NCBI GenBank assembly: GCA_036785375.1
Contig: JAWMAR010000102.1
Coordinates: 6,696,001-6,760,000 of the forward strand
DNA length: 64,000 nt
Source: Leucoraja ocellata
Lineage: Eukaryota
Direction: 5' to 3'
Below are positions 2,735-58,205 of the stretch, in pieces; position 1 is the stretch's first letter; the number at the start of each line of letters is the position of its first letter. Under the pieces are notes generated by a model that saw only the letters and a list, made by a program, of their open reading frames with translations, ran no database searches and had not been told where the DNA came from. A program made the position numbers and the translations under genes.

Positions 2735-3107
2735 TAGAAAAAAATTACTGGAGAAGCTCAGCGGGTGAGGCAGCATCTACGGAGTGAAGGGATAGGTGAC
2801 GTTTCGGGTCGAGACCCATAAGGGTCTCGTCCCGAAACGTCACCTATTCCTTCGGGATTTCGACCCGAAACGTCACCTATTCCTTCGGGATTTCGACCCG
2901 AAACGTCACCTATTCCATCGGGATTTCGACATGAAACGTCACCTATTCCATCGGGATTTCGACCCGAAACGTCACCTATTCCATCGGGATTTCGACCCGA
3001 AACGTCACCTATTCCTTCGCTCCATAGATGCTGCCTCACCCGCTGAGTTTCTCCAGCATTTCTTTCTACCTTCGATTTTTCCAGCATCTGCAGTTCTTTC
3101 TTGAACA
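2735..3107. mobile_element. palindromic Penelope-derived mini-element with 6 x 33-bp internal array
   Basis: Inverted arms; array at 2818-3015; flanking duplication GAACATAAT(A/G)CCAAGA. Confidence 0.85.
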
Positions 3108-3327
3108 TAATGCCAAGAGAAGCTAGTTTCTTCTGCCTATCCTCTTTTTAAGCAATGGGACCAAAACTGTGCGCAGGATTCCTGGTGAAGACTCACTAAC
3201 AACCCGTATAACTGGAACTAAACCTCCTTTTTGTAAACTCTAACCCCTTGCAACAAAAGCCAACATTGAATTTGCCTTCTCTGCTACTTGTTGGGACTGC
3301 CAGCCAACTTCTCGGTTTCATGCACCA

Positions 3328-3613
3328 GTGACACAGCGGTAGAGTTGCTGCATTACAGCACTCGCAGTGCCAGAGATCTGGGTTCGATCCCAACTACGGG
3401 TGCTGACTGCACGGAGTTTGCATGTTCGCCCTGTGACCTGCGTGGGTTTTCGCCAAGATCTGCAGTTTCCTCCCGCTCTCCAAGGCCGTACAGGTTTGTC
3501 GGTTCATTGTCCCTAGTGGGTGCAGGATAGTGTTAATGTGCGGGGATCGTTGGTCGGTGTGGATCCGATGGGCCAAAGCGCCCGTTTCCATGCTATATTT
3601 CTAAACTAAACTA
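3328..3613 (+). mobile_element. HE1-like tRNA-derived V-SINE
   Basis: A/B-box head (GGTTCGATCC), conserved core, CR1-like tail ending (CTAAA)n. Confidence 0.88.
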
Positions 3614-4800
3614 CTTAGTTCCCTCTGAACTCACTGATGAGCTAGTTAACGTGGAACTAACAATCAGTGCAGCAGGCACCAGCATAGCCCCCTGTAAATA
3701 GCCTGTCAGAGTTGGGATTAGGTGTATTATTGCCACATGTGCCAAGGTACAGTGCATGCCACCCAAACAGATAATACAGGAACACAATCAAGCCGAACTC
3801 TAGTGCAACAGGTAGAGCAAAGGGGAAAGGGGTGGAAGATTGCAACCTTCACGTGGTCCGCCCGGTTTCAACTAATGCAATCAACTCGACGTGCACAAAC
3901 GGAAGATCAAATAGAACAAGTTGTCCATCAACGTTAGGCTGTGCACATCACACGAAAGAAGAAGAAGCAAAGGGGAAGATACAGAGTGCAGAATACAGTT
4001 CTCAGATTTGCCCCCTTCTTGAAAATGGCCTCTTTCGCAAGTCCATGAAGTCACTTTGCAAGCTCCCCTTGTACATGTTCAACACAAGAGGGTATAGGTA
4101 AAAGGTGAGAGGGGAGAAAGTTTCATGGATATGTGCGGGGGAGGTTTTTTTACACAGTGGGTAATATGGGGGGGGGGGGGGGGGGTGTGCTGCTGGGGAT
4201 GGAGGTGTTTAAGAGGCTTTTAGATAGGCAGATGGAAGCACAAACATAGAGGGATCTGGATCATGTGCCGGCAGAGGAGATTAGACTGACTTGGCAGCAT
4301 GTACGGCACAAACATTACAGGCCAAAGGGCTCGTTTCTGTGCTGTACTGTTCTGTGTGAACAAGGAGGCTTGAATGCAAGCCAGAAGTTCTTGTCAGTCA
4401 AGTTTTGGAAATCATAGCCGTTACCCCTTTCTACAAACAGCCTCTATTGCCAATTAGCGAGCGCTGTGTGAATAATGACGGCTCGGGCAGTGAGATGGAC
4501 AACAAACAACACCCGCTGAACCAAAACCCAACGCTTCTTAATAATGTTTTGAAACCGCTGCCAAGCAATGCAAAACCACACATCACACAAAAATAATAAT
4601 GACTATAACTAGCAGCAGATAAAGTGAATGATGGCATTCCAATCATCTGTGAAACTATGAAGGCTGGATCGCATAAAGGCTACATCTTTGGCAATATTGA
4701 AACATAATACCTCCAATCCAGGGCCATGTAAATGCATGTCTTACAGATGCCTTACAGCAGTGTTGGTGTTTGCTGGAATGCTAAGAATTGACATTCTTAC

Positions 4801-4975
4801 CTACTGCCCACATCACCGTGTCAAAGGACTCTCGTTCTTCAATGTTAGACGCCAGATTTTTCCACACAACCTGCAGTTTGCCATTGTTCAGTTTTTCAAT
4901 TTTGATGGGAGTGCACTTCCAAAAGATGCGGGTGCCGTAAGATGTCATGTAGTCCGTCACCAAGTGAGCCATTTG
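4801..4975 (-). CDS. TXNRD2: TXNRD2 exon 11 (QMAHLVTDYMTSYGTRIFWKC...ESFDTVMWAVG)
   Basis: acgcag and gtaaga sites; 175 nt; matches human QMSSMVIEHMASHGTRF...FDTVLWAIG. I did not find exon 12 in 1-4800, so the gene continues off the left edge. Confidence 0.96.
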
Positions 4976-5120
4976 CTGCGTTAAATGAAGGGGGGAGAGC
5001 ACGTTGAGAAGCAGCAGCATTTATTAATATTGACATCAGGTCCCACATTTGCCACGTTTACCCAGAGACAACTGTGAAGCAACAATTAGAGTTGTTCGCA
5101 TCACCAGCACAGTGGCCGCA

Positions 5121-5526: not shown

Positions 5527-5858
5527 TTTCACTTTCTCCCTGTAACTGCGAGGTTTACTCTGGGTGCTCCGGTTTCCTCCTACATCCCAAAGACGTGCGC
5601 GTTTGTCGCTTAAATTGGCCTCTGTTGATTGCGCATCGTGTATCGGGAGTGGGTGACAAAGTGGGATAACATAGAACCTGCGTGAATGAGCGTGGACTGA
5701 GTGGTCCATGGAGCCTGTTTCCATGCTATGTCTTTCAACCCATTGAACACATATAAAACTAACGTTATAGATCATAAACCAGTTCATTGTCATTTCAGGA
5801 TGTCTCAAACTACATCCCAATAACCAAAACACATTTTGACCTGTTACATTCTCTGACA

Positions 5859-5990
5859 GGGAGATATGCAACGATTCGGGTCGAAACGTTGCCTATTTCC
5901 TTCGCTCCATAGATGCTGCTGCACCCGCTGAGTTTCTCCAGCATTTTTGTGTACCTTCGATTTTCCAGCATCTGCAGTTCCTCCTTAAAC
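5859..5990 (+). mobile_element. PLE mini-element (single arm)
   Basis: Family arm sequence; TSD ACATTCTC(T/G)GACA at 5846-5858 and 5991-6003. Confidence 0.8.
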
Positions 5991-6657
5991 ACATTCTCGG
6001 ACAAACTGTTAAACCATTTCCTAACAAGCATATAACATCACAAAATAGACTAGTCTTGCCCAAACACTACGTTTTTTTCAGATTTCCATACCACTGTTTG
6101 TGGACGTTCTCTGTACTGTAGATGCTAGGCTGTATATATGTCAAGAAGATGTTATATCAATGCAAGTTTCTTTTTTCTAAATGGTCTGACTCACTTCTTT
6201 CAACACTCGATTAGGTTCTGCAGCCTTCAGAAAACACATGTAGCAGTAGCTGGAAATGGGCTTGGCCTCAGTGGGCATTAAGAGCCAAAACGTTTAGCCA
6301 CTGCCTAATCACACTCACTCTTCTATGAGGTTTATCCATGATGGTGCCAGCAATGCGGGACAAATGTTGACCTGCACCGACCAGCCCGGGTCCACCATTG
6401 TTGGATTGGAACAAGGTCTGGCTACTGCCAGCTCAGACAGCACCCACCCTCCTCAGAAGCAGTCACACAGGCAGATCTCCACAGAGAGACACACAAAGTG
6501 CCGGAGTACCTCAGCGGGTCAGGCAGCATCTCTGGAGGAAAAAGGACAGGTGACGTTGGTTGGACAGAACGAGTGTGCGGGTGATTCCTGTATTTCTAAA
6601 CCAAACTAATGGATTGTAATTCAAAATAATGGTTGCATTTATGCAAAATTCTTCTTA

Positions 6658-7529
<872 letters not shown>

Positions 7530-9190: not shown

Positions 9191-9600
9191 CAGCATAACC
9201 CCGACATCCTCACTTCTCCCCTCGCCTATCGTGCAGAAGATGCTACCAGATTCAGAACAGCTTTTTTTCCCCGTCAGTTATCAGACTGCTGAATGGCTCT
9301 CCCATAGGATGGGGTGTAGCCTCGATCTTCCAACCTACCTCATCGTGGACTGTGGGCTCTTGTCTCTGCAACTTCTCATGGAGTCCACATCACAAGATTG
9401 GAAATTGTTCAGCCACAGCTGAACACACTTCTCGGCACGTGAAACACAATGGCGTCTTGCGCTTCTTGTGCTTCCTGTGCGTAGTGGTGGAAACGGGACT
9501 GTGACGTGACCCCTCTCTGCAACTATAACACTCTAATGTTTTAACATGATATTCTGCACTTTGGCTATTTTCTCTTTGTTACCACCTGTTATATTTGTGC

Positions 9601-9913
9601 GTAGACAAAAGTGCTGGAGAAACTCAGCGGGTGCAGCAGCGTCTATGGAGCGAAGGAAATAGGCAACGTTTCGGGACGAAACCCTTCCGGGTTTCGGCCC
9701 GAAACGTTGCCTATTTCCTTTTGGGTTTCGTCCCGAAACGTTGCCTATTTCCTTCCGGGTTTCGTCCCGAACGTTGCCTATTTCCTTTTGGGTTCCGTCC
9801 CGAAAAGTTGCCTATTTCCTTCCCTCCATAGATGCTGCTGCACCCGCTGAGTTTCTCCAGCACTTTTGTCTACCTTCGATTTCCCAGCATCTGCAGTTCC
9901 TTCTTAAACAACA
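9601..9913. mobile_element. palindromic PLE mini-element with about 4 x 34-bp array
   Basis: Inverted arms; TSD TGTTATA(T/C)TTGTGC at 9587-9600 and 9914-9927. Confidence 0.87.
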
Positions 9914-10424
9914 TGTTATACTTGTGCACTTGCTCGGTTGTACACTTCAGCACCTTGTGTGTCTATCTATGCTGCCGAAACCCGTTGAGTTACTCCAGCA
10001 CTTTGTGTCTTTTTTTCCCCCTAATGAACACTGTGATTGGGCCTGCGGAAATCTACGCTGCACATATTGAAAGAAAAAGCTTTTGCTATGTGTGTGGCCC
10101 ACACAAGACTGAACATCAAGACACTTGAAGGATGAGGTGATGGTGAAATGGATAATCCCTCTAGGCATTAACAATATAACGCCAAGTGAAAGTGTAATAC
10201 ATATTGTAGAGGAACACCAGCCCCAAGGGCTACATCAGTGATGTTAATTCATAATGAGACACGGTGAATATGCCTCCGGCTGATGTCCACAATCCCATCA
10301 TCCATTTATGCTCAACATTTGCACCTCACCAATGTTTCTTTAAGTGCAAATACCACCACCTTCAAGCCAGCTGAAATAAATCTGTTTCGTGCAGACACTG
10401 CAAGCCAGAATGTGCTGGAGTTTG

Positions 10425-14009: not shown

Positions 14010-14500
14010 TAGGCAACGTTTCGGGACGAAACCCAAAAGGAAATAGGCAACGTTTCGGGCCGAAACCCGGAAGGGTTTCGTCCCGAAACGTTGCCTATTT
14101 CCTTCGCTCCATAGATGCTGCTGCATGAGAGACCCCTTCCACCCCTGCAACGGACTGTTCCAGCTGCTACGGTCAGGCAAACGCCTCCGTTGCCATGCGG
14201 TGAGAACGGAGAGGTTGAGAAGGAGTTTCTTCCCAGAGGCAATTCGGACTGTAAACGCCTATCTCACCAGGGACTAACTCTACAGAACGTTTTTCCTTCT
14301 ATTATTTATTATGTAAAAGAATATGTGTGGTATGATTGTGTTTATAATTTGTTTGGTTGTTTTGTTGTTTGTCTTTTGCACAAAAAATCCGCGAGCATTG
14401 CCACTTTCATTTCACTGCACATCTCGTATGTGTATGTGACAAATAAACTTGACTTGACTTGACTTGACGCGCTGAGTTTCTCCAGCATTTTTTGTCTACC
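14010..14500. mobile_element. PLE mini-element interrupted by a LINE 3' end with (GACTT)n tail (14126-14468)
   Basis: Arm sequence is broken at GCTGCA|...|CGCTGAG; the same LINE end recurs at 15714-15990 and, reversed, near 46122-46520. Confidence 0.8.
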
Positions 14501-15328: not shown

Positions 15329-17716
15329 CATAACAGTTCAGTCATTATTTCAGGTTTAGATCTGAAACAATGGAGCACCAGCATATTTCAATCGTGGATG
15401 GGAAAGGTTTGGAGGAATATAGGCCAGGCAGCAGGCAGTCAGTCTGAAGAAGGGTCCCAATCCAAAATGTCTCCTATGTGCTCAAGAAGGAACTGCAGAT
15501 GCTGGAAAATCCACAATGTTTCAGGCCGAAACGTTACCTATTTCCTTCGCTCCATAGATGCTGCTGCACCCGCTGAGTTTCTCCAGCATTTTTGTGTACC
15601 TGTCTCCTATCTATGTTCTTCAGAGATTCTGCCTGACCCGCTGAGATGCCCCAGCACCTTGAGTCATTTTTGTAAGCAGCATCTGCAGTTCCTTGTTTCA
15701 GCAATTGCCTTTAGTCAGGCAAACGCCTCCGTTGCCATGCGGTGAGAATGGAGAGGTTGAGAGTTTCGGACTGTAAACGCCTATCTCACCAGGGACTAAC
15801 TCTACAGAACGTTTTTCCTTCCATTATTTACTATGTAAAAGAATATGTGTGTTATGATTGTGTTTATAATTTGTTTGGTTGTTTTGTTGTTTGTCTTTTG
15901 CACAAAAGTCCGCGAGCATTGCCACTTTCATTTCACTGCACATCTCGTATGTGTATGTGACAAATAAACTTGACTTGACTTGACTTGACTAGTTGCAAAA
16001 GTGTTTGTAGTTTAAGTATAGGTCACACTAGTGGATCATAGTGTATGCCTTCAATAAGATATACCAACAGCATCGTAATGGTGAAAGTATCTGATTAATT
16101 CTGTACTATATTTCATTTCAAATAGCACGCTTTCAGTCCTGGGTGTCTCTGTACTATGTGTACGAACCAATTCAAAGATTTTCTGACACGACAAATCTGA
16201 ATAAAGCTGTAGTCCAGACATCAATTTTTTTTTAAATCTAACAGCCAAATGTCGTCAGAAAAGATTTAGTTGATGACACGACTTTGTTTATTAAATTAAA
16301 TTCAGTACGGAGGGTTCAAGTTTCATTTAAAATTCCTGTGTTGAATTGAGCACAGCATCAAAGGGCAGCTTCCATTATTGGGCAAGTCCCTCTACGCTCC
16401 AGTTTGAAAAAATACATTTTGTTCAACTAAGCTGTCGACGGCGTTGGCTGCCATTATTCTAACTGCAATTTTTTAGTCCATTACGCTTGAATATACAAAA
16501 ATAAAAGAAAACTTGCAGAGATGCTGGAATGAAAACAGAAACTGCTTGAAATAGTCAGCAGGTCAGACAGCATCCGTGAAAAGAAAAACAGAGTCAATGT
16601 TACAGGTCAACTATGCTGTTCGACCTGTTCCTTGCTTCGTGTAGTTTCTGTTTTCATTGTGCTTGAATATACATTGTGGATCCTAATGCAAAATATCTTT
16701 CAATTTACAGCTACTTTCTCTGTACTATGACTGCAGCCACCGTCACTCCTTGCAGTTCAAGAATGATTCAATGAATCATCATTCATCCAAAATACACGCT
16801 AAATGTCAAAACCACAATTTCTAAGAGTGCATCCAGGGGAAAAACGACATTGCTTGTGCAATGAAACGAACATATTCACAATCCTGAGCATGCCTGCATT
16901 GACCTCAAAGTTTTGCATTTTTAGAATATGGAAGTAAAAGGAATATTTAATTATTTTTCAATTACCAATTTAATTATTTTTCTCGTGTCTTCAGCTACAA
17001 GTTAAAACTCCAGAGAACTTCGTAAAAAAAAGAAGACATCTTGAGACCAGGAATAAGCCTTCAGTGAGCTTGATGTGGGAAATTTGCTGATTGCTGAAGT
17101 AATTGCAACCTATAGCCATCCTAAGGCAAATAGCTAAATAGGACTAAAAACGCTTTGAAGTTCCCGTGACATATCCTTTGAAGGACGAGAACAGAAAACT
17201 ATGAAGTCCATCAAGACACACTGGTTAACTGGTGAATTATTAGCGTTCTGGTATGTTTTCAACATAACACTGGAAAACATTCTGAAGAGCAATTTCTGCA
17301 TTTTAATGATATGTCGCTAAAGATCATTCTCAAAATTCATATTTTTGACTGTACCCTCCTTTCCCCAGGTTGAAGCAGTTCAAATCAAATTCATTTGTCA
17401 CCTTCTTTACAAGGAGAGCATATCTGAGGCAGGGAAGCCGTCAGATCTGCAACTTTAAATATTGCTCAAACAGGTTCATTCAACCGTGACGCTATTCAGA
17501 AAATGTACTTTGAAGCAATCAGAATCAGATCTTGTAATGAACTCAGTAATCTGCTTTCTGGAGCATTAAGCAGCGAAGGATTCAAGTTTGTCAACATCAG
17601 GTACACAATGAGAGCTCAGTAGATAGGTGGGAAATGTATTTTAAAGATACAGGGTGACGAGGAATACCTTGTAATTCACAACAGGAAATAAATGCTTATT
17701 ATAAATCATTAGAATG

Positions 17717-18208: not shown

Positions 18209-19380
18209 CTTTCAAAAGTAAATGATCACTTCACAGCCAAAGCACAACTCTATATTCTCAAAAGGACACAAAGTGTAACTCAGCTGTTCAGGCACCATCT
18301 CTGGAGGACATAGATAAGCGATGCCTCAGGTCGGGACCCTACTTCAATGATTGAATGAATGAATGAATAAGTTTATTGGCCAAGTATTCACATACAAGGA
18401 ATTTGCCTTGGTGCTCTGTCCGCAAGTGACAACATGACATACAGCGACAGTTAGGATTGACACATAAAACATTAAACATTAATAATAAAACATGATTGAT
18501 TTAACATGTGAATTAAATAAAATAGCAGAGCATATGGAGGCTACAGATTTTTGGTTATTGAGTTGAGCTACTAATCATGGAAAAAAAGCTGTTTTGTTGA
18601 TTGTTATCCAAAGACTGATTGTTCTCTAGAGATGCTGCCTGACTGCTGAGTTACTCCAGCACGTTGGGTAAACCCGCCAAGACTAAGACTTTGCCTCCAT
18701 CACAGTGAGGATGTGCTTGGTGAACTCACTGTGGTGGATGTTTCATTTGTGTTTATTATATGTTTTGTTATTATTGATTCTGTGTATGACTGCAGGCAAC
18801 ATAATTCCGTTCAGACCGAAAGGTCTGAATGACAATAAAGGAATCTAATTCTAATCTAATTCTAATAATTCTAATCTGTAGTTCCTTGGTTCTACATTTT
18901 GAGTGCTCTATATTCTTGTCTGTTGCAAGAATATGAACAGCACATGGGGTGGAGAGAGCTGTGGCAGAAGAGATTTACTGCTGAAGCACTGTTCTGAATG
19001 AGTATAAAAGTTTAATTTAAAGGATTTCAATCGTTATATATATATATAGATATATAAACCAGCTACTGGGGGGCAGATGGGATGTCAGGCTTAAAACAGA
19101 AGCACAGAGCTCTTAAAATCACTAGTGGTTTCAACCGAAAATAATTCTAATGCCAACTTGATTCGTCTGAACTGCCGTGAATTAATAAGTAGAGAAAATT
19201 AAATTGTAGCTTCCCCCGTCTAATTGGGTGTTGATCATCACCAAGTATATCAGTCAGGTTCAACTGTGAGGTCTACTCCTCCAACATGAGGAGATCTAAT
19301 TTTGGTTTTAATATTCCATCATCATGACTGCAGAATAAATTGAAAGGGAAATGTCATAGATTCAAGGTAAAGATTCCAGG

Positions 19381-19700
19381 ACCTCTCTGTCCTGGGGCTC
19401 CTCCATGGCCAGAGTGAGCACCACCAGAAATTGGAGGAACAGCACCTCATATTCCGCTTGGGCAGTCTGCACCCTAGTGGCATATACATTGAATTCACCA
19501 ATTTCCAGTAGCCCTTGCTGTCCCTTCCCCTTCTCAGCTCCCCCTCAGCCCTCGGTCTCCTCCTCTTCCTTTCTTCTCCCCATCCCCGCCCACCCTGCAT
19601 CAGTCTGAAAAAGGGTTTCGGCCTGAAACGTTGCCTATTTCCTTCGCTCCATAGATGCTGCTGCACCCGCTGAGTTTCTCCAGCACTTTTGTCTGCCTTC
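19381..19700 (+). mobile_element. 5'-truncated Penelope-like element (end of GIY-YIG, 3'UTR, hammerhead-like motif)
   Basis: LSVLGLLHGQSEHHQKLEEQHLIFRLGSLHPSG; TSD AAAGATTC(C/A)AGG at 19369-19380 and 19701-19712. Confidence 0.88.
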
Positions 19701-21033
19701 AAAGATTCAAGGCATGGCTAAGGAGAGAGTGGCAAGGTTTAACGGTGATGTGTGGGGCAGGTGTTTTTTTTCCCCAGAGTGGCGGGTGCCTGGAATACAA
19801 TAGCGTTAGAGGCAAAAATGATAGTGGCATTCAGGAGGTTTTTAGATAGGCACAAGAATATGCAGGAAACAGGGGGATATTGATCACGTACAGGCAGAAG
19901 AGATTAGTTGAACAACATCATGTTCAGCATGGACATTGTGGGCTGAAGGGCCTATGATGTTATTATGTTGTTCCTGTGCTGTATCGTTCTATAAAAGGCA
20001 AAAGTAATATCATGTCAGCAGCCCTTGGCTTTAAAAAAACTGCATGAGAAACATGGCTGACAGGAAATTGAATCAAATGCATCTTTGAGAGCATGACTCT
20101 GGTGTCAACCATGAGGCAAACATAGTGAGATGTAGTAAAAGTCCATCACACAACCTCAGTCTCACTCACATCTCGATGCCAGCCTTTAGTCTTAAAGCTG
20201 AAAATGTCACTGAACTGAATAGCTAAGTTGGGCAGTAAACAAGCATCTAAATATGCAGTAAAATCACATGATGGTCCAATTGGATAACGGTTGCAGAATT
20301 AATTCATTGAGCGGCCGACGTGAGTTTGGCGAGTTCTGAAAATAACAGTTACATGGTCATCATTGTTGATAGTGTTTCTCTTTAAGTAAAGATTCATTGA
20401 TTTTTTAATTGCCCAACCTGCTGTTGTGGGAATTGAACTTCTATCAACAGCCCAGGTCTCCAAATAGCAAATCCACTCTATGAATTAAACATTAGTTAAA
20501 GAGCAGACACAAAAAGCTGGAGTAACTCAGCGGGGAGTGAAGGAATCGGTGATGTTTTAGGTCGAGACCCTTCCCAGCTGAATGACTTTATGAACTAACC
20601 AACTTGAAAGATTCAATTTGTCAACAAAGGTATTTTCCAATGTTCTTCCTTCTTTGGTTCTCTTGAGTTTGTGCATCTTGTAAAGATTTTGCATGTAACC
20701 CTTTGCCAAATCTCTTTTAAATTGCCTTCGAGTCTGGGAACCCAGACATACACAATAATTAAAGTCCAGCACCCTGACAAAATATCTTGGTATGTAAAAA
20801 AGTGTCCACTTTGATTTAATACGGTAGAATTATAGCCATTACCTTACGCCTGCTATAATGTTCTCTACACTAACAGCTGAACACAAGGATAGTCAAAACA
20901 TTATGATATGCTCTTTTGCTCAATACAAATTTATTTTTATGAATGGCCATATTTGACAGCCTAAACGTGAAATCATCTAGAAGTTCCCGAAAACTATGTA
21001 TTAAGGATTGGACAGGAAGCAATCAATACTTAC

Positions 21034-23644: not shown

Positions 23645-24272
23645 TCACTTCCCACCCAATCCACCCCCTCCCCTAGTACTTTCCCTTGCAACCGCAGGAA
23701 AGGCTACACTTGTCGCTTTACCCCCCCCCCTTGACTCCAACCAAGGACCCAAGCAGTCGTTCCAGGTGCGGCAGAGGTTCACCTGCACCTCCTCCAACCT
23801 CATCTACTGCATCCGCTGTTCCAGGTGTCAGCTGCTCTACATCTGTGAGACCAATCGCAGGCTTGGCAATCGCTTTGCCCAACACCTCCGCTCAGTTTGC
23901 AATAACCAACCTGATCTCCCGGTGGCTCAACACCTCAACTCCCCCTCCCATTCCGAATCCGACCTTTCTATCCTGGGCCTCCTCCATGGCCAGAGTGAGT
24001 CCCACCGCAAATTGGAGGAGCAGCACCTCATACTTCGCTTGGGTAGTTTACACCCCAGCGATATGAACATTGACCTCCAATTTCAGGTAGTCCTTGTTTT
24101 CTCCCTCTTTCCCCTCCCCTTCCCAGCTCTCCCACAGCCCACTGTCTCCGCCTCTTCCTTTCTCCCCCCCCCCACCCCCGACATCAGTCTGAAGAAGGGT
24201 CTTGACGCAAAACCGTCGCCCATTCCATCGCTTCATAGATGCTGCCCGACTTTCTCCAGCATTTTTGTCTAA
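23645..24272 (+). mobile_element. Penelope-like element remnant (Zn-finger linker, GIY-YIG endonuclease, 3' repeat)
   Basis: FPCNRRKGYTCRF, then NLIYCIRCSRCQLLYICET-RRL..RF..H and LEEQHLILRLGSLHP; followed by the CTGAAGAAGGG... terminal repeat; degenerate. Confidence 0.9.
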
Positions 24273-27549: not shown

Positions 27550-27651
27550 CAAGGTAGACAAAAGTGCTGGAGAAACTCAGCGGGTGCAGCAGCATCTATG
27601 GAGCAAAGGAAATAGGCAGCGTTTTGGGCCGAAACCCTTCTTCAGACATTC
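27550..27651 (-). mobile_element. PLE mini-element (single arm with hammerhead-like core)
   Basis: - strand reads GTCTGAAGAAGGGTTTCGGCCCAAAACG; AAGGAATGG on both flanks. Confidence 0.8.
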
Positions 27652-32848: not shown

Positions 32849-33309
32849 TTTCTTTGGCATCTGTTTGCACCCTTCATCAAAAGTGCTGTCAGGTAATTTA
32901 GCAATTAAATAGTTAAGGTTACACAATGAATGCATTTCAATTACATTTGTTAGTATATCAGATTTTTCAAATAAACTGAGGTGTGGATACTGCAGGAAAG
33001 TTTCAACGGGAAGGTTTCTTGTTCAACAACTTTTGGGAGAGCAGAACAAAGGACATAAGAAATGGAATTGGATTCAGCTGGGAGGTGGGAAGGAGCACAA
33101 ATGTTGTGTTAGAAAAGACTACAGATTAGACGGGGAGCAAACACAAGAGACAGCGAAACAAAAGAGTTGAGTTTGTGGAGCCGACAGTTGTGTGCTCGGG
33201 AACAAAATTCTAACGATTCTATTAATAAAAGTATTTCAAAAGTCAACAAGTCACAACATTTTTTGCACATCATGGAAGGTGAGTAGCAAATATAGTTCAT
33301 TCAGCATTT

Positions 33310-35637: not shown

Positions 35638-37519
35638 AGTTATCAGATGGTGCATGCAAGAATGAAAGTTAAAATACAGTAACTGGTGGAGAGGGGGATA
35701 AAGATTTTATACACCAGAAATTTTCCCTTGAATGCATCCTCAACTACTTATGGTTGGTACTGAGTGTCACATTATAGCCATTCTCTGGATAGAGTTTACG
35801 AGACAGAACTTGGCCGTAGGGCTGCGTGGTTTGCTCTTTCGGGCGTAAGTAAAGCCGCTGTGTTCACTTAATGCTGACCTTTGATGGAGCAAGCCAATCG
35901 CTCCAACTCCCAGGTCCTTTCCCATACACTTTAACCTGAGAATGGATAGAATGTGCAACTCAATACCATAGCCAGTGGAGGCAATTAGCATGGGTGCACT
36001 CAAGGGAATGCTGGAGGGAGAAAGAAATAAGTTATGCTGACGCAGATAAATAAGTAGGGATAGGAGGTATCTTGTAAAAGCTATTTTATTTCTTAAATGT
36101 GGGCACTGCTGGTGAGGCCAGTATTATGTACCAGTCCCTCCAGAGGACATGGCTCTATTGCTTACTCCCTCAAAGCTGTCTGGCAAGGAATTAGAACACA
36201 AAACAGTACAGCACAGGAACAGGCCCTTCGGCCCACGATATCCGTGCTGAACATGATGCCAAGTTAAATTCATCTCCTCTGCCTGAGTGTGATCCACATC
36301 AATCCATTTCCTGCACATCCGTCTGCTTAGTTAAAGGCCCCTTAGATACCCATATTGTGCCTGCCTCCACCCTAACTCTGGCAGTGCTTTGCAGGCATCC
36401 ACCACTGTTGAAAACATCTTCCTCTGCACATCTCCTGTAATGTTTTTCCTCTCTCACCTTGAAGCTCTGCTCTTTAGTGTTTAATGTTTCAACCTTGGGG
36501 TAAAAGTTAAAGAAGATGCCCTGGGATAAAGGTTAAAGGTACGAATTGGGAAGCCAGAGGAAAGAATCAATCCCACATGTTTTGTCTTTTGATCTCTGGT
36601 CTTTGTTGAAACATCTGCCTATCAAACACCGCCTCCCCCCACCCCCCTCACCTATCACTCATCGGGCTTTGTCCCGCCCCTCCTCTTTCCAACTTTCTTT
36701 GCCCCACCACAATCAGTCTGAAGGTCCCAACCGGAAACATCACCAATCTATGTTCTCCACAGATGCTGCCTGACCCACTGAGTTACTCCCAGTGCTTTGT
36801 GTCTTTTTTTTGTAAACCAGCATTTGCAGTTCCTTGCATCACCCAGAATAACACCCTTTCACTACAACCCTGTCTTATACAAGTAAGGACACGACTTCAG
36901 AATTAAGGGACAGAAGTTTAGGGGTAACATGAGGGGGAACTTCTTTACTCAGAGAGTGGTAGCGGTGTGGAATGAGCTTCCAGTGGAAGTGGTGGCGGCA
37001 GGTTCGTTGGTATCATTTAAAAATAAATTGGATAGGCATATGGATGAGAAGGGAATGGAGGGTTATGGTATGAGTGCAGGCAGGTGGGACTAAGGGAAAA
37101 AAGTTGTTCGGCACGGACTTGTAGGGCCGAGATGGCCTGTTTCCGTGCTGTAATTGTTATAGGGTTATATTGTTACAAGTAGGTCAGTTTTTAATCCAAA
37201 TGGGAGGATTTGATGAAGGAACAGCAATGTATTTCTACGCTAGAATGGCATGCAACTTGGAGTGGGATTTGCCACAGTGGTCTCTTCATAAGTCCTTCCT
37301 ACACCAAGGAAGTTATTGATGAAGTGGCTGAAAGTGATTAGCCCAATAATTAATTTTTGGTGAACTCCTTAAGATTTGTCCTGTGCAGATTGGTCTTAAC
37401 AACTCAACTATCTTCTTTCACTCACTACTTTTCCAGCCAGTGCAAGTTTGGTCTCACTACCATCGATTTTTTGCAACTTTGATTTTATCCTTAATGCCGC
37501 TGACATCTTGATAGCAAGG

Positions 37520-37663
37520 TGTTCAAGAAGGAACTGCGGGTGCTGGAAAATCGAAGGTAGACAAAAGTGTTGGAGAAACTCAACGGGTGCGGCAGCATCT
37601 ATGGAGCGAAGGAAATAGGCAACGTTCGGGCGGAAACCCTTCTTCAGACTCTACTTGTCTACC
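37520..37663 (-). mobile_element. PLE mini-element
   Basis: Perfect 14-bp TSD TCTTGATAGCAAGG at 37506-37519 and 37664-37677. Confidence 0.88.
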
Positions 37664-39160
37664 TCTTGATAGCAAGGGCTGTCACTCTCATCTTTGGAAC
37701 TCAGCTCTTTGGCCTACATTTGATGCTGTAGTCCTTGTGAAACTCAAACTGCTAAGGAGAGCTTTAACAAGTTACTTGAGAGCATTCCATCTTTGACTAC
37801 ATTAATGATGGAAGTAAACCGATAAGAGTGATAGCTCACTGTATTTTGTTTTCGTGGACTTGCTGCACCTCGGTATTTTTCCACACTGCCTGGTGCAAGC
37901 CAGCATTACACTTATAATAAGATCATTACAACACAGACGGGCATACAGTTCATCTAGTCTCATGCCATAGAGGAGCAGTATAAGTTGAGAGGCAGCTAAT
38001 TCTGGAGCACAACTCTTCAAAAACACAGGCAAGATATTGCCCTGGCCGTCTCTCATCTACTCAGCTTCTTCTTACTACCACATGCAAATAAATTGGCTCA
38101 TTTGGAATCTGCTATGTCCAATTCCTACTTCTAGCTTAAAATGATTCAAAATGCTTCGAAAAACACTGGAGTAACTCAGCGGGTCAGACAGCATCTCTGG
38201 AGAAGATGAATAGGCGATGTTTCAAGTCGGGACCCTTCTTCAGAATCTGGAAGGATCCTGACACGATACATTGCCCATCCATGTTCTCCAGTGATGCTGC
38301 CTAACCAGCGAAGTTACACCAGCACTTTGCGTCTTTTTCGTAGAAACCGGCATCTGTGGTTCCTTGTGTCTGCAAATGTTTCTACCTTGTCTTATCATTC
38401 ATGTGTGGAACTCTTGACTTGTTCAGGATGGGCATGTAATGTGATTTCATAAGTTCACAAGACATGGGAACTGAATTAGGCCATTTGGCCCACTGGGTCT
38501 GCTCTGCCATTCGATCATTGCTGATCTATTTTTAATCATCCTTTACCTTTAACATCCTTACTAATCAAGAACCTATCAATCTCTGCTTTAAAAATACCTA
38601 ATAACTTGACGATCCACAGCCATCTGTGGCAATTAATTCCAGATTCACTACCTTCTGACTAAAGAAATTCTTCCTCATCTCCATTCTAAAGGTATGTCCT
38701 TTTATTCTGACGCTGTGCCCTCTGCCACGACTGAAACACTCTCCACATCTACTTTAACTGATTTGAAAGTTATTTAAAGGATCTTTTTTGTCCTTTTCAT
38801 AGATAAATAATTCATTCACAAAATTATAAACAGAAAATACAATTAGGAGCTCTCTTTCTTGACAATCGCTGTACATCAAATCAATGCGTATATTCCTCTT
38901 ATAATGCATTAATGCCACTGTTGTTCATCAAATCATTCAGCTGTCCATATCATGAACTTACTACATAGCACAAATATCTGTTTAGCACATATATGAATCC
39001 TTGCCGTACCTTCATAGGTTTGCTACTTTGTTTTAAGTACGCTGCTGCTCCATCTACATTCCTCGCCAAACCAAGTTAGGCCCCCTAGTTAATGGTAACA
39101 GATCAACAAATGCACTCAAATGAACCATAAGAAGCATCCCTTTTAAAGCTGTTTTTGTAC

Positions 39161-43909: not shown

Positions 43910-44256
43910 TGCTGCTTTGGCTAACTGGAATATCTGTCTCTTCAACATGACTCTTACCAAGGTAGACAAAAGTGCTGGAGAAACTCAGCGGGTGCAGCAG
44001 CATCTATGGAGCGAAGGAAATACGCACCGTTTCGGGACGAAGCCTGAAAGGAAATAGGCAACGTTTCGGGCCGAAACCCAAAAGGGTTTCGGCCCGAAAT
44101 GTTGCCTATTTCCTTCGCTCCATAGATGCTGCTGCACCCGCTGAGTTTCTCCAGCACTTTGTCGACCTTCAATTTTTCCAGCATCTGCAGTTCCTTCTTA
44201 AAAAACGAAATGACTCTTTTACCAATTTCTGCAGATGTGCCTTAGAGAGCATTTGA
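43910..44256 (+). repeat. inverted duplication, copy A (PLE palindrome plus flanks)
   Basis: Reverse complement of 45414-45756; the PLE is bounded by TSD ATGACTCTTACCAA. Confidence 0.92.
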
Positions 44257-45413: not shown

Positions 45414-45756
45414 TCAAATGCTCTCTAAGGCACATCTGCAGGAATTGGTAAGAGTCATTTCGTTTTTAAGAAGGAACTGCAGATGCTGGAAAATTGAAGG
45501 TCGACAAAGTGCTGGAGAAACTCAGCGGGTGCAGCAGCATCTATGGAGCGAAGGAAATAGCCAACGTTTCGGGACGAAGCCCGAAAGGAAATAGGCAACG
45601 TTTTGGGCCGAAACCCGAAAGGGTTTCGGCCCGAAACGTTGCCTATTTCCTTCGCTCCATAGATGCTGCTGCACCCGCTGAGTTTCTCCAGCACTTTTGT
45701 CTACCTTGGTAAGAGTCATGTTGAAGAGACAGATATTCCAGTTAGCCAAAGCAGCA
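45414..45756 (-). repeat. inverted duplication, copy B, inserted in an old CR1 remnant
   Basis: Flanks are the reverse complement of copy A; TSD TTGGTAAGAGTCAT at 45445-45458 and 45706-45719. Confidence 0.92.
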
Positions 45757-48376: not shown

Positions 48377-49440
48377 ATATGGAGAGTCGGTTTGTCAGGG
48401 AGGACTCTCTCGAACTTCTACAGGTGCACAGTAGAGAGCATGCTGACCGGTTGCATCGTGGCTTGGTTCGGCAATTTGTGCGCCCAGGAGCGGAAAAGAC
48501 TACAAAAAGTAGTAACCACTGCCCAGTCCATCATCGGCTCTGACCTCCCTTCCATCAAGGGGATCTATCGCAGTTGCTGCCTCAAATAGGCTGACAGCAT
48601 CATCAAGGACCCACACCATCCTGGCCACACGCTGCCTTCAGGTAGAAGGTACAGGAGCCTGAAGACTGCAAACGTCCAGGTTCAGGAATAGTTACTTCTC
48701 CACAGCCATCAGGCTATTAAACCCGTCTGAAGAAGGGTTTCGGCCCGAAACGTTGCCTATTTCCTTCGCTCCATAGATGCTGCTGCACCCGCTGAGTTTC
48801 TCCAGCTTTTTTGTGTACCAGGCTATTAAACTCAACTGAAACAAAACTCTGAACATTAATAACCCATTATCTGTTTATTTGCACTTTATCTGTTTATTTA
48901 TTCATGTGTGTATATATTTATATAATGGTATATGGACACACTGATCTGTTCTGTAGTCATGCCTGGTATGTTCTGTTGTGCTGAAGCAAAGCAAGAATTT
49001 CATTGTCCTATCTGGAACACATGACAATAAACTCTCTTGAATCTTATAGAATCTTACAAGAAACTTACAAAATTCTTAAGGGGTTGGACAGGCTAGATGC
49101 AGGAAGATTGTTCCCGATGTTGGGGAAGTCCAGAACAAGGGGTCACAGTTTAAGGATAAGGGGGAAATCTTTTAGTGCCGAGATGAGAAAAAACATTTTT
49201 CACACAGAGAGTGGTGAATCTGTGGAATTCTCTGCCAGAGAAGGTAGTTGAGGCCACAGTTCATTGGCTATATTTAAGAGGGAGTTAGATGTGGCCCTTG
49301 TGGCTAAAGGGATCAGGGGGTATGGAGAGAAGGCAGGTACGGGATACTGAGTTGGATGATCAGCCATGATCATATTGAATGGCGGTGCAGGCTCGAAGGG
49401 CCGAATGGCCTACTCCTGCACCTATTGTCTATGTTTCTAT
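48377..49440 (+). mobile_element. Rex/Babar-like LINE 3' end with nested PLE arm and CR1 3' end (49062-49440)
   Basis: Near-copy of 42347-42985. Confidence 0.85.
48725..48756 (+). ncRNA. putative minimal type-I hammerhead ribozyme motif (PLE terminal repeat)
   Basis: gt-CTGAAGA-A-GGGT-TTCG-GCCC-GAAA-CGTT-gc; core boxes and stem II are present, stems I and III are minimal; activity untested. Confidence 0.55.
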
Positions 49441-50955: not shown

Positions 50956-51622
50956 TACTGGAACACCAGTTGCTAGAAAATAATTGTACTGCAGTTATTT
51001 CTTATAAAAAATGAAATTAAATGCTGAGAATCATTCTGCACAGGAGGCTATAAATCCCATAGTGTCTGACCTGACGCTATGAACGAGCCATCAGGTGATC
51101 CCATACCCACTGCAAAATCCACCGAAAAACCTATATATTTTCTTTCAAAGTCAGTTTCTAATTCTACCTTCAAATTTACGAATGAACCTGCTTCACCGCC
51201 TCTTCTGGCAATTCTTAACGTCAATAATTCACAATGTAAATAGATCTTTTTTTCTTCCTCAACATCTACTGCCCAGTATTCTGAAATAAATCAATTTTAA
51301 AACAGCCAAATGTGTGTGCATCAATGCAGGGAGAGTAAAGCAATGAGCTCAGATGAATAGCTCTTTCAATAGATGGAATTTAAAAAAAAAAGAAAATGAC
51401 AAACATTCGGCAGGTCGGGCAGCATCTGCGTAAAAGAGAAACAGATTTACAGGTACAGCAGCTCCATAGATGCTGCTGCACCCGCTGAGTTTCTCCAGCA
51501 TTTGTGTGTACCAACAGATTTACAATTTCAGGTCAAAGATCTTTCGGCATAACTGAAAAATAAAGCTAAATAAAGTGGTTTTAAGCTGTGAACCAGGTGA
51601 TGAGAGAATTGGATAAAACTAA

Positions 51623-51948
51623 AGGGCCTGTCCCACTTACATGACCTTTACAGGCGACAGCCAGCACCCGCCATAGGTCGCCGAAACTTTCAACATGTTG
51701 GAAATTCAGTGATGACCAGAAAGACGCTATGACTTTTTAGAGACCTCTCACGACCACATGGTTGAGATAGGTCACCCGCGACGTGTCGCCTGTATGGCCG
51801 TGAGAGGTCTTCTATGGTTGTGAGAGGTCTCCAACGAGTCGTAACGTCTTTCTGGTCGCTGCTGAATTTTCAACATGTTGAAAATGTTGGCGACCTATCA
51901 CGGGTGCCAGCAGTCGCCTGTAAAGGTTGTGTAAGTGGGACAGGCCCT
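51623..51948. mobile_element. Harbinger-type MITE, almost fully palindromic
   Basis: AGGGCCTGTCCCACTTAC / GTAAGTGGGACAGGCCCT; TAA and TTA flanks. Confidence 0.85.
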
Positions 51949-52064
51949 TTAAGGGAATACAGTAACAATGATAGAGTGATCCCCGGTTACATGGGGTAAT
52001 GGGGCGTGTTAGAGGGTAATTACACTATTGTATTATGTATTGCTCGTAGCAAAGGTGTGCAGTA

Positions 52065-53655: not shown

Positions 53656-54548
53656 AGAAACGTAGAAAATAGGTGCAGGAGTAGGCCATTCGGCCCTTCG
53701 AGCCTGCGCCGCCATTCAATATGATGATGGCTGATCATCCAACTCAGTATCCTGTACCTGCCTTCTCTCCATACCCCCTGATCCCTTTTGCCACAAGTGC
53801 CACATCTAACTTCCTCTTAAGTATAGCCAATGAACTGGCCTCAACTACCTTCTGTGGCAGAGAATTCCACAGATTCACCACTCTCTGTGTGAAAAATGTT
53901 TTTCTCATCTCGGTCCTAAGGGGGGGGGGGGGGTCTTATAGAAACATATACAATTCTAAAAGGACTGGACAAGCTAGATGCAGGAAAGATTTTCCCAATG
54001 TTGGGCGAGTCCAGAACCAGGGGCCACAGTCTTAGAATAAAGGGGAGGCCATTTAAGACTGGGGTGAGAAAAGACTTTTTCACCCAGAGAGTTGTGAATT
54101 TGTGGAATTCCCTGCCACAGAGGGCTGTGGAGGCCAAAATCACTGGATGGATTTAAGAGAGAGTAATGTCCCTGTCCCACTTAGGAAACCTGAATGGAAA
54201 CCTCTGGAGACTTTGCACTGCACCCAAGGTTTCCGTTCGGTTCCCGGAGGTTGCAGGTGGTTGCCGGAGGTTGCAGATAGTGGAAGCGGGTAGGGAGACT
54301 GACAAAAACCTCCGGGAACCGCACGGAAACCTTGGGCGGGGCGCAAAGTCTCCAGAGGTTTCCGTTCAGGTTTCCTAAGTGGGACAGGGACTTTAGATAG
54401 AGCTCTAGGGGCTAATGGAATCAAGAGATATGGGGAGAAGGCAGGCACGGGTTATTGATTGGGGACGATCAGCCACGATCACAATGAATGGCGGTGCTGG
54501 CTCGTAGGGCTGAATGGCCTCCTCCTGCACCTATTTTCTATGTTTCTA
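53656..54548. mobile_element. back-to-back CR1 3' ends (- at 53656-53918, + at 53920-54548) with nested Harbinger MITE (54167-54392)
   Basis: Tails point outward; the MITE sits at the TTA of GAGAG-TTA-GATAG. Confidence 0.88.
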
Positions 54549-54648
54549 AGTGTGTAAGATTGGAGTTGTGGCCATGATCAGTGCAGCCATGCCCCTCATT
54601 GAATGGCAGAGCTGGCTTTTATTCCTATTTATTACCTGCTTTTACCAG

Positions 54649-54931
54649 ATGGAAGAGTATCTCACTAACCTCGGCATCCTGGTGGCCAGTCTCCTCCTGC
54701 TTTTCTTCCTGCTCCCTGTCCTCTGTAAAAACAACAGTACAGCAGCAATATTCTGGCACACAGTCCTCGAGGAGAAGCTGGCAATGCTGATGACAGGCAC
54801 CAGCAGAGAGAACAGGATTCTACAGTATGTGATGCAGAATGCTGTGCAAGGTGATGCAGGGAGCGTAGTGGAGAATATCGACAAATACTGCCGGGACAAG
54901 GAGTGGGCGATGAATGTGGGCGATGAGAAAG
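54649..54931 (+). CDS. COMT: COMT first coding exon (membrane anchor plus N-terminal domain, ...EWAMNVGDEKG)
   Basis: ATG immediately after the ttttaccag acceptor; hydrophobic LGILVASLLLLFFLLPVL; EWAMNVGDEKG motif; donor G|gtaggc; 283 nt, phase 1; head-to-head with TXNRD2. Confidence 0.95.
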
Positions 54932-55257
54932 GTAGGCTTGTTTTATATTTAAAGACATCTCAATCACGATGTAACCACAACACATTATATTAACATTATG
55001 TTATTTGGCATAAGATAAATCTCTCCAATTACTTACAAGCTCAATATAGAATTCAATCATTTCAGGCAACTCACCTTTCCTGTTGTGTGCCTGAATTGGT
55101 CATTTTTACACTAAGTCCATTCTGAGGGAAGTAGGAGTTAGAGGGCAGACACAAAGGAGGGCAATAAAATAACTTGCCAATGCTGCCGAATGGAGCAGTC
55201 ACTGGCTGTGGCTGAAGAGGAAAGATGGTGTCTGGGCTGCCACGTGACCATCTAGAC

Positions 55258-55703
55258 CAGTGGTTCCCAACGTGGGGTGTATGCCCCACAGGGGGGCAAT
55301 TTGATTTTTAAGGGGGGCAATTGAGTGCGACTGAGGAGGTCTGGGTCCAAATTTTCGATTTTTATTTTTTTGGATTTTCCATCAGGTAAACATATGTAGT
55401 TTATGTTTCAGATGTTATTTTGAGTAAATAATTTTTTGGGGGTAAAAAAGGTCTTTATTGTGTAGTTATTACATAATCACCGCGCCATCGCTCTTCATGC
55501 ACGTCGCACGAAGCGCGCGAGGTCATGGGAGAACCTTATTTATTGAATTGGATTTAGAAATGCGATTCAAAGAGCTTTTGCTAAGTTACCCTTATAATAT
55601 AATATCTATTTCCTCAGTTTTCTCTCAAGGGAAAGCAAGGGGGGGCATCAGGATTTTAGAGGTGATTAGGTGGAGCATGGCCAAAAAAAGTTGGGAACCA
55701 CAG
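55258..55703. mobile_element. hAT/Charlie-type MITE
   Basis: TIR CAGTGGTTCCCAAC / GTTGGGAACCACAG; 8-bp TSD ATCTAGAC/ATCTAGAG, the NTCTAGAN target typical of Charlie. Confidence 0.9.
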
Positions 55704-56249
55704 ATCTAGAGGCTAACCATAAGACACACACCCAGGTCGGATCACCCTGCAGTGGGCCTGCCTCGACTGAGGGTGTCTTGTGACTAAAGGCCGGAACACC
55801 CAGTGACGTTGAGGTACACAACTGAAGCTGTGTCTGATTGTTAGCAAATTCACCTAGTGGTCACCCCCAAGAATGTCAATTGTAGTGTAAAATCTTAGGG
55901 ATTGTAACACCCAGTCCTAACACCCAGTCCTACTAATCAATCTGATTACTTGGGCACAGCTGGTAAAGCTGCTGCTTCTCAATGCCAGCGATCCAGGTTT
56001 GATGCTGACAGTGGGTGCTATCTGTGTGGAGTTTGCATGTTTTCCCTCGGTGCTCCGGTTTCCTCCCACATCCCAAAGACTTGTGGCGTCTGTAAATTGC
56101 CCCTCATGTGCAGGGAGTTGGGATAACACAGCACAAGTGTGAACAGGTCGCACAGATGGTCAGCGTGAACACATTGGGCCAGAGGGCCGGCTCCAAGTTG
56201 TATCTTTCAGTCCAAATCTCCACATAATCCATGGACATATTGTAACTAA

Positions 56250-56581
56250 TGGCCCTGTCCCACGGTACGAGTTCATTCCAAGAGCTCTCACGGGTTAAAA
56301 AAAAATCAAACTCGGGGTAAGCACGGAGAATGAACGTAGCGGGTACGTCGGAGCTCGGGGACGTCTCTTAGCGGCTCGTAGCGCTAACGGCAGGTACTCG
56401 GGAAGACTCGCTAACGGCAGGTAAGCACAGGAAGACTGGTGAAGATTTTTCAACATGCTGATAAATGTCCACGAGAGCCCCAAGTCCTCACGAGCGGCCA
56501 TTAGCGTAAATCTCCGAGTTGGAATCAGGGCAAACTCGAGGAGAGCTCTTGGAATGAACTCGTACCATGGGACAAGGGTTT
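56250..56581. mobile_element. Harbinger-type MITE
   Basis: CCCTGTCCCACGGTACGAGTTCATTCC TIR; TAA flanks; near-identical to 57445-57774. Confidence 0.85.
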
Positions 56582-57444
56582 TAAAACAGTGACATTTCAA
56601 TAAGAAGGAAAAGTGCTGTAAACACACACAGCAAGTCAGGCAGCATCTGTGGTGCGAGATACTGAGCCAATGTTTCACGTTAGGATACTGCTCAGAGTCG
56701 GTTGCCAAAGATTTAAAAAAACTTGGATCATATTGAATGACGGGCGAAAATGTTAGATTGTGATTCGTAGATTCCGACTGCTACGAGGATGTTCCTTTAA
56801 TCCCGGGCAAAAGTGTTTCTTTATTATGTGTCAGAGGGACCTTTTTTGGTCAAAGTAGTTTAGATTTGCAGTGAGCATCAATAAGCTCCCAGGTTGGTCT
56901 GGTTTCACGGATAAGATCTGTACAGGGTTCACGCCTTCAATAACAACTGTCACCCATGATTAATGAACCCACACCACAAGACAATGTACCACGGCAGATA
57001 CGTGGAGCTGACTACTGTTACCATGGTAACTATCTACAGGCTGGGCTGAGGCAAAGGACTTTGCAGATTACCTGCCAAATTCAATATAAAATAAGCTGAT
57101 ATGATCACAGAATAATTTATCCTTTGATGGCAAAATGCCGTGAGAAATTGTTTTCAACAAAAGGGTATAAATATTGATCAGGGGGCATTACACTAGACCA
57201 AGTTTGTAAATAGGATTAAAATTGTCAAATTAAATGTGTTAGTGGATCGGGATTCCATTTTTTTCCCCATTTAAGTCGACGGATAGAAACAAAGAACTGC
57301 AGATGCTGGTTAATACACAAAAATAAAACACAATGTGCTGGAGTAACTCAGCAGGTCAGACAGCATCTCTGGAGAACATGGATAAGTGACTCGAATCGTC
57401 ACCTATCCATGTTTTCCAGGGATGCTGCCTGACCTGTTGAGTTA

Positions 57445-57774
57445 AAGCCCTGTCCCACGGTACGAGTTCATTCAAGTGCTCTCCCGAGTTTAAAAAAAAA
57501 TCAAACTTGTGGTAAGCACGGAGAATGAACGTAGCGGGTACGTCGGAGCTCGGGGACGTCTCTTAGCGGCTCGTAACGTTAACGGCAGGTACTCGGGAAG
57601 ACTCGCTAACGGCAGGTAAGCACGGGAAGACTGGTGAAGATTTTTCAACGTGATGGAAAATGTCCACGAGAGCCCCGAGTACCGACGAGCGGCCATTACC
57701 GTAAATGTCCGAGTTCAAATCAGGGCAAACTCGGGAGAGGTCTTGGAATGAACTCGTACAGTGGGACAGGGGTT
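57445..57774. mobile_element. Harbinger-type MITE nested in a PLE palindrome (about 57287-57800)
   Basis: Inserted at the TTA of GAG-TTA-CTCCAGCAC. Confidence 0.85.
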
Positions 57775-58205
57775 TGACTCCAGCACTTGGTGTCCTTTTG
57801 GTAGTTGTTCATCTACCCAGCAAAGGCTCCTCTCGTTAGTCCACAATGGTTAGTTCTCGAGTTTCACAAGAAGGGCTAAACCCCCCGGGACACACTCCAG
57901 TCTTGATCTCAAACCACTCGCGCCGGGGAGGATCCTGAACTGTGCACAATGAGCGGGTCTCTCTCAAAATGCTTGCTTGCGTTTACTCTCAACCTTCCAA
58001 GGCCGGGCAGCAGAGGAAAGAAAGCAGTCAAAGTGGAAAACCAACAATGATATTGATGCTGGAACATAAAATGGAACCAGGAATGCTGGAAGATCTCAGC
58101 GAATCGAACAGCATTTGTTCCAATGGAGGGTCATTGACCTGAAACATTGGTTTCTCCTTCCACTGATGCAACTCGACTGACTGAGTTCTTCCAGCATTTA
58201 TTTTG

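Follow-up and report, generated by a model that had tools for sequence, protein, structure and literature searches.

The ends of Penelope-like elements (PLEs) are scattered as short inserts, many of them palindromic, along a 64,000-nt stretch of the Leucoraja ocellata genome (assembly GCA_036785375.1, 3.44 Gb in 5,847 contigs; contig JAWMAR010000102.1, positions 6,696,001 to 6,760,000 of the forward strand, G000:C102:6,696,001-6,760,000 in our numbering), hereafter the window. They raise the question of which part of such a palindrome is passed on when it multiplies. The first-pass annotation of the window saw in them a family of non-autonomous hairpins, each with its own target-site duplication (TSD). 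Comparisons across the assembly point to another unit: the arms end as ordinary PLE ends do, and what appears to be inherited locally is the centre of the palindrome.

The five sharpest palindromes of the window share one junction, CCC-N4-GGG, with exactly 4 nt between CCC and GGG. The symmetry axis had been placed at stem II of a hammerhead-like motif; it does lie close by, but in the 4-nt loop just 5' of stem II and not within it. This fixed-junction class is the dominant palindrome type of the window, and a strict pattern finds at least 3,965 such junctions genome-wide. Only 3 occur in a random sample of eighty 10-kb pieces (799 kb, 250 PLE-end copies in total) and 0 in 159 kb sampled over C102:0.2-5.3 Mb, while they are dense in C102:6.05-6.25 Mb (18 in 199 kb) and in the window (5 in 63 kb). 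A junction that arises deterministically each time was rejected, as the first 50 of the 3,965 places, among the matches listed, all lie in C1:20.1-21.8 Mb, whereas a control fold-back junction is dispersed (567 matches; 100 among the matches listed fall on 40 contigs). The converse possibility, that every palindrome arises independently, does not describe the class either: thousands of copies share one junction, and private variants of it recur at independent sites.

Four private core variants are each found chiefly in one region of 1.6-4.7 Mb, on C102, C1 or C23, at differing TSD-flanked sites. The 62-nt core common to the window copies at 9587 and 14010 has 16 matches, 11 of them in C102:5.54-6.71 Mb; the flanks of these copies differ except in four flank-sharing pairs, and several copies have clear TSDs of 12-17 bp. 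Marker 1, a 23-nt variant from the window, has 34 matches; 23 lie in C102:5.45-7.02 Mb, and the first 5.45 Mb of that contig contains none. By their flanks, these 23 matches comprise 14 separate sites and 6 duplicates, with 3 uninspected. Outside C102 the variant is found twice on C49, twice on C281 and on three small contigs, of which two have flanks in common with C102. Marker 2, from C1, has 28 of 52 matches in C1:20.1-22.0 Mb. Marker 4, a 2-nt arm insertion, has at least 96 of 144 in C23:7.9-12.6 Mb (96 of 100 among the matches listed), some of these being the two arms of one copy. Markers 1, 2 and 4 were selected within their own cluster regions; marker 3 was not, being taken from C220 and C1 loci, and at least 54 of its 204 matches fall in C23:8.05-11.77 Mb (54 of 100 among the matches listed). 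The three home regions are mutually exclusive (chi2 198), and a control arm-tip type is dispersed (5,144 matches, 54 of them spread along all of C1). Minor secondary clusters of core variants are present, and therefore long jumps also happen. The core variants of 44032 and 2843, which beyond the window and its paralog occur on a single small contig only, carry little information on spread. Taken on its own, local inheritance of the core is in our judgement very probable.

The tips behave differently from the centre. The last 11-12 nt of the arm fall into several types, which recur in ordinary copies on many contigs. Fixed-junction copies of C102 carry identical tips on their two arms in 8 of 10 cases, whereas tips taken from different copies agree in 10 of 90 pairs (p=0.0004). 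The corresponding values are 11/16 and 29/240 when all regions are pooled, and 10/13 and 20/156 in an earlier version of the typing. Copies with a shared core carry at least five different genome-wide tip types, linked within a copy and not between copies. The same cores are found in arms of other subfamilies (L207, L214, C1 loci), and among fixed-junction copies the tail stands on either side of the core. Because of these three observations, the unit of local inheritance appears to be the centre and not the whole element; in C23 this unit extends to about +46, counted from the C of the hammerhead CUGA box in the natural reference copy L026. The idea that whole hairpins propagate as units was not borne out, since tips match between C102 copies (10/90) no more often than between unrelated ordinary palindromes (6/72; within a copy, 5/9).

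Some cores have also entered tandem repeats. At L001-L015 (C1:20.1-20.5 Mb), and at C102:6.06 and 6.14 Mb, fixed-junction cores lie within arrays of a unit of about 66 nt from an older PLE arm, apparently a PLE-derived satellite that spreads along with the core. At L251-L254 (C23:10.44-10.47 Mb), single insertions hold 11-15 copies of the 33-34-nt stem II unit, which looks like the birth of a minisatellite from the core; units of this length contain stem II and GAAA only. Furthermore, C48:9.2-9.8 Mb, C49:2.6-3.8 Mb and C1:20.9-21.9 Mb received several different core variants and may be neighbors in the nucleus or on the same chromosome.

In the window itself, a BLAST search with 19381-19700 gave 39 matches at about 30 places, nearly all confined to the last 50-130 nt of the element, which agrees with the annotation's claim of many small inserts built from the 3' end of a GIY-YIG element. 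The copies and related features are as follows.

2718..3118, no strand: fixed-junction palindrome with subfamily B arms and five 33-nt tandem units; tail right; TSD of 17 bp at most (1 mismatch); the paralog has three units at this position
5846..6003, plus strand: direct arm and tail with a short inverted stub at the 5' end; 13-bp TSD (1 mismatch)
9587..9927, no strand: fixed-junction palindrome with the local C102 core variant; 33-34-nt tandem units; tail right; 14-bp TSD (1 mismatch)
14010..14125, no strand: core-only patch, the 62-nt core of 9587 reversed, without PLE ends and without TSD
15468..15612, no strand: palindrome with an inverted arm that was shortened by about 69 nt after insertion; nested in an older PLE end; TSD 12 bp, longer in the paralog
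19369..19712, plus strand: 5'-truncated PLE with the end of the GIY-YIG open reading frame (ORF), a pyrimidine tract, a damaged hammerhead and a tailless arm; 12-bp TSD (1 mismatch)
23645..24272, plus strand: longer 5'-truncated PLE of an older subfamily, with the linker end and the GIY-YIG domain
27551..27647, minus strand: single arm that starts at the front edge of the hammerhead
33053..33066, no strand: empty target site; the paralog has a 200-bp palindrome between two copies of the 14-mer
37506..37677, minus strand: arm and tail with an inverted tip of about 10 nt; perfect 14-bp TSD
43947..44225, no strand: fixed-junction palindrome carrying a single additional 34-nt unit; TSD of about 14 bp that includes a 2-nt indel
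45414..45756, minus strand: inverted copy, at the DNA level, of 43910-44256, including its two TSDs and some 40 nt of flank at either end; lacks a TSD of its own; centre inverted with respect to the flanks
48710..48833, plus strand: single tailless arm with intact hammerhead core boxes; exact 13-bp TSD
51440..51524, plus strand: shortest copy, an arm end of about 50 nt and a few inverted bases; 12-bp TSD
57344..57444, no strand: older-subfamily palindrome with 47-nt arms and a 7-nt loop

All eight TSD pairs named by the annotation were recovered in place. The exact matches are 8 nt (5846/5991), 7 nt (9587/9914), 10 nt (15468/15601), 8 nt (19369/19701), 14 nt (37506/37664), 9 nt (43947/44210), 13 nt (48710/48819) and 12 nt (51440/51513); with one mismatch allowed they become, in the same order, 13, 14, 12, 12, 14, 9, 15 and 12 nt, the value of 9 rising to about 14 if a 2-nt indel is admitted by eye. 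There is a ninth pair at 2718/3102, 17 nt in length, which overlaps partly with the tail. Among 117 young copies of the sampled DNA, a set that includes a few duplicated sites, 47 have a TSD of 9-18 nt (mode 13-14) against 0-2 after the flanks are shuffled, so the TSDs of PLE-end copies are not due to chance.

Some other candidates were rejected. The segment 45414-45756 is not a separate TSD-flanked insertion, being the inverted copy of 43910-44256 with its flanks, and 14010-14125 has neither PLE ends nor TSD. Four long inverted repeats with CCCTGTCCCAC-type ends (51620-51951, 54164-54395, 56253-56577 and 57439-57780) have no relation to PLE palindromes; these intervals, and others near 21300-21690 and 22230-22440, represent at least three families resembling miniature inverted-repeat transposable elements with such terminal inverted repeats. 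LINE-like (long interspersed nuclear element) inverted arms at 53836-54136 possibly reflect a twin-priming inversion of a different retroelement. Exons of an O-methyltransferase gene, which we take to be COMT-like, lie at 54550-54990 and 61482-61781 (the second with Methyltransf_3, E=5e-11).

The parent of the inserts is itself a PLE. A first look for its GIY-YIG region gave 149,819 candidates genome-wide, of which 150 were scored. The copy L242 has an open frame of 526 aa with YIDD and GIY-YIG, and the top relatives (46-48% identity) have RVT_1 and GIY-YIG, which supports the proposed PLE origin. The Pfam GIY-YIG match falls under the curated cut-off (E=0.0017). A CxxC stands between the IY and YIG boxes, with His residues downstream, in accordance with the CCHH motif with two Cys between GIY and YIG by which endonuclease-bearing (EN+) PLEs are defined (PMC8557442). 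L037 and L242 have a CX4CX2C linker, which fits the zinc-finger-like CX2-5CxxC linker of Neptune, a motif common to Nematis too. By the motif features given in the available text of PMC8557442, the parent would be a Neptune-type EN+ PLE. None of six long copies examined, in what was not a systematic search, is intact and full-length with a 5' pseudo-long terminal repeat (pLTR); all are truncated or broken. The proposal that the non-coding copies are made in trans is also supported.

Extrapolation from the 250 sampled copies gives about 1.08 million PLE-end copies genome-wide (0.95-1.22 million). Their arm terminates near +95, or near +129 with the tail, and exactly one tail is found in 31 of 35 simple palindromes. 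Head-to-head arrangements outnumber tail-to-tail ones by 47 to 3, and single arms start at -12..+5 in 91 of 161 cases. Among the 47 random palindromes there are 43 distinct breakpoint pairs, and most of these palindromes are one-offs, made afresh at insertion. Both 5' ends lie within -6..+20 of the core in 29 of the 47, in support of fold-back at self-complementary spots within or just before the hammerhead, as had been suggested. Intron-like features mark the interval from the ORF end to the hammerhead (24084-24185 and L016-L045), namely a CAG/GTAGT start, a pyrimidine tract and a CAG just before the core, and most short copies start directly after this predicted intron-like stretch.

The consensus of the minimal type I hammerhead consists of CUGANGA, stem II, GAAA, UH and a self-complementary helix III. 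All five elements are present in 25 of 65 core-spanning copies, obtained with a search pattern that pre-selects core-like copies. Helix I has at most 2 bp in 57 of these 65 copies and at least 4 bp in 4, compared with the 4-5 bp of the minimal type I. Rfam gives no hammerhead match, and its below-threshold matches to microRNA hairpins were rejected as generic hairpins. In fixed-junction copies the CUGANGA catalytic box is absent from both arms; because this box is lost, a working ribozyme is predicted not to be part of the class.

When the centre is acquired can be approached through sites that exist in two versions. Window positions 1-38,298 have an inverted paralog at G000:C102:6456877-6496884, about 200 kb away and 96-99% identical, with several insertion differences; whether this is a genuine duplication or a haplotype placed wrongly, it gives two versions of the same sites. 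The window holds an empty site at 33053-33066, where the paralog has a 200-bp palindrome with a 14-bp TSD. At 2735 the paralog has three units and the window five; at 9587 ends and TSD are identical and the TTTT variant is absent from the paralog; at 15468 the paralog keeps the arm lost in the window. In another pair of one site, on C3945 and C102, the core is flipped and partly deleted in one version. Cores thus keep changing after insertion by flips, unit slippage and deletions. No empty site of a fixed-junction copy was found in the paralog, where all window copies up to 38.3 kb are common to both versions and the duplication stops before 43947. Contigs of four sequencing runs were compared with window 8900-11200 and were swamped by repeats; two of them span the junction on the left of 9587, and the core is resolved in none.

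Palindromes and single arms stand at 37:20 in cluster blocks and at 15:27 elsewhere (p=0.005; the C220 block and four C102 tiles excluded), a net gain of palindromes that speaks for acquisition of the centre at insertion. For ordinary palindromes the ratio is 6:20 in clusters and 12:27 elsewhere, so that they are not depleted there (p=0.58). Inspection of L206 by eye shows, within what appears to be a single TSD-bounded unit, flanking sequence from a copy 690 kb distant together with the flank of L206's own target in inverted form. The patch 14010-14125 and the copy 45414-45756, both without a TSD of their own, point to DNA-templated copying. TSD mismatches in three classes amount to 5/152, 8/216 and 7/261, and this divergence clock does not separate the models.

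Two fixed end sites (arm end or tail end), staggered cuts of 12-16 bp, head-to-head geometry, local cores and global tips are the observed base of the reading that we prefer, namely that fixed-junction copies are built from two sources and that joining at insertion is the main route by which they acquire their centres; we give it an even chance. The enzyme would prime cDNA from both cut strands on RNA of the currently active element, as may be expected from in vitro work (PMC11167929), and so leave two matching tips and one tail. Because both cDNAs would be antisense and would stop near the hammerhead, they could not anneal with each other. Fold-back at short self-complementary spots could join them and would yield dispersed one-off junctions; alternatively, synthesis could switch to a palindrome already present close by, in the form of DNA or nascent RNA, whose centre would then bridge both cDNAs. 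The bridged product would be a new donor, so that core variants would spread through the neighborhood, and local DNA repair may also move cores on their own. The content of L206 counts in favor of template switching at the target. A bolder version, which we hold more tentatively, sees in the palindromic centre a replicator that lacks its own ends: a hairpin close to a two-ended insertion started by a Penelope enzyme would serve to bridge it, and centres would form neighborhood lineages, raise the local insertion rate, seed minisatellites and record germ-line chromatin proximity.

Several points weigh against joining at insertion. No intermediate of two-source joining was seen, and the in vitro two-strand priming (PMC11167929) comes from a Poseidon-clade element, whereas the parent here is of the Neptune type. 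A TSD is detectable in only 11 of 27 fixed-junction copies. The cluster blocks were picked by their core markers, and the 31 fixed-junction copies in the comparison of palindromes with single arms take in core-only fragments and count 43947 and its copy twice. Tips could be typed in 25 of 44 candidate copies, and in the C23 subset (n=3) there was no effect, 1 of 3 being matched. The contigs are unplaced, so that far-off matches of core variants may or may not share the home chromosome. Finally, cores differ between the two versions of a site at 2735, 9587 and 15468 and between C3945 and C102, which is what conversion after insertion predicts. On that account, all palindromes are made afresh, and fragile centres later break and are repaired from a nearby palindrome by local non-allelic gene conversion, unlinked to insertion. 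The patch without ends at 14010-14125 and the TSD-less, flank-bearing inverted copy at 45414-45756 point to local copying of this DNA-templated kind, and the tips of fixed-junction copies match as those of ordinary palindromes do. Conversion needs recipients, however, and these seem too few unless core-only fragments supply the excess: the density of fixed-junction copies rises to 63-183 per Mb in cluster blocks, while that of ordinary palindromes, which are undepleted in clusters, is 5-33 per Mb anywhere. Conversion as the sole route is a real contender but somewhat unlikely, and joining at insertion and later conversion probably both act.

Clustering and the net gain of palindromes would equally follow if whole hairpins formed a non-autonomous family, in which a local copy is transcribed within host nascent RNA, where the PLE enzyme would start internally and insert it at a site close by. 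Unprocessed RNA is reported to support such internal starts (PMC11167929), and nested sub-lineages share extra junctions yet differ in 5' truncation (L126, L127, L130, L132, L141). Sister copies nevertheless bear at least five linked tip types dispersed genome-wide, tip haplotypes are independent of core lineage in the sample, and neither the cores in arms of other subfamilies nor the tail on either side of the core fits with such hopping, which we consider improbable. Segmental duplication, assembly artefacts or a regional insertion preference could also produce clusters; the window has a 38-kb inverted duplicate 200 kb away, some matches are tandem duplicates or lie on haplotype-like contigs, and parts of C48, C49 and C1 receive several variants. 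Flank comparisons largely refute this explanation: the flanks of most copies are unrelated, and these copies occur in either orientation with TSDs of their own. Every variant also has its own home region, and control motifs are dispersed. The probability of this explanation appears very small.

Retroelements are expected to disperse. For part of a retroelement to be passed on over a range of a few megabases is unusual, whichever of the two leading mechanisms, two-source joining or conversion, is responsible. If the replicator account is true, the distribution of centres would be a record of nuclear neighborhood in the germ line. A caution applies to consensus libraries and phylogenetic trees of these repeats, in which two separate histories are mixed. 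The literature (PMC8557442, PMC11167929) treats the joining of the two PLE ends and the origin of inverted structures as an open question, and with about a million fragments whose markers separate tips from centre, the end-joining step becomes testable by sequence alone.

Much of the anatomy is familiar from other PLEs. As described in the available text of two reports, the EN+ PLE insertion unit has an inverted 5'-truncated copy and a tail of 30-40 bp at one end (Craig et al., 2021, PMC8557442; Arkhipova et al., 2013, PMC3846280). Head-to-head arms, junction palindromes, a one-end tail and mobilization in trans by pLTRs are shared with the copies here, whereas TSDs are about 8-10 bp in the described elements and 12-16 bp in ours. 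Junction palindromes are there ascribed to self-priming, and the same text describes neither a fixed junction thousands strong nor regional inheritance of centres. The Poseidon element PAc, according to the accessible account, cuts and extends both strands in vitro, has two internal start sites that bound the tail, and can dispense with hammerhead cleavage (Frangieh et al., 2024, PMC11167929). It belongs to another clade and two-end joining is left open there, but the pattern of two strands and two start sites is shared with the anatomy here.

Minimal hammerheads of metazoan PLEs are reported to have an extra base before helix II and a palindromic helix III region, with many solo motifs from truncated PLEs and pairs on opposite strands (Cervera and de la Pena, 2014, PMC4209133, as far as its available text goes). 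The copies here share these traits, while the fixed-junction class lacks the CUGANGA box. Non-LTR retrozymes are likewise non-coding derivatives of PLE ends with tandem units (PMC7229834, bioRxiv 10.64898/2026.07.22.740005), and their multimers are described, in the part of the preprint available, as enriched in a few regions. Retrozymes are, however, head-to-tail with a whole hammerhead per unit (PMC7229834, available text), whereas the units here are head-to-head, 33-34 nt long and without the catalytic box, and thus fall outside that definition. Microhomology fold-back inversions, fragile-site capture, two-ended priming and local spread are known kinds of event that are not known to have been described for a retroelement centre inherited regionally over many rounds. 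Full-text searches of the open literature, in which most hits were judged by their listing and the opening of the abstract, turned up no report of regionally inherited PLE centres; subscription papers and supplements lay outside this search, and a Repbase/Dfam entry for the consensus is possible. The overall anatomy of the inserts has, to judge from the portions available, already been described (PMC3846280, PMC8557442). What appears to be new is the combination of ordinary PLE ends with locally inherited palindromic centres that are predicted to be ribozyme-dead.

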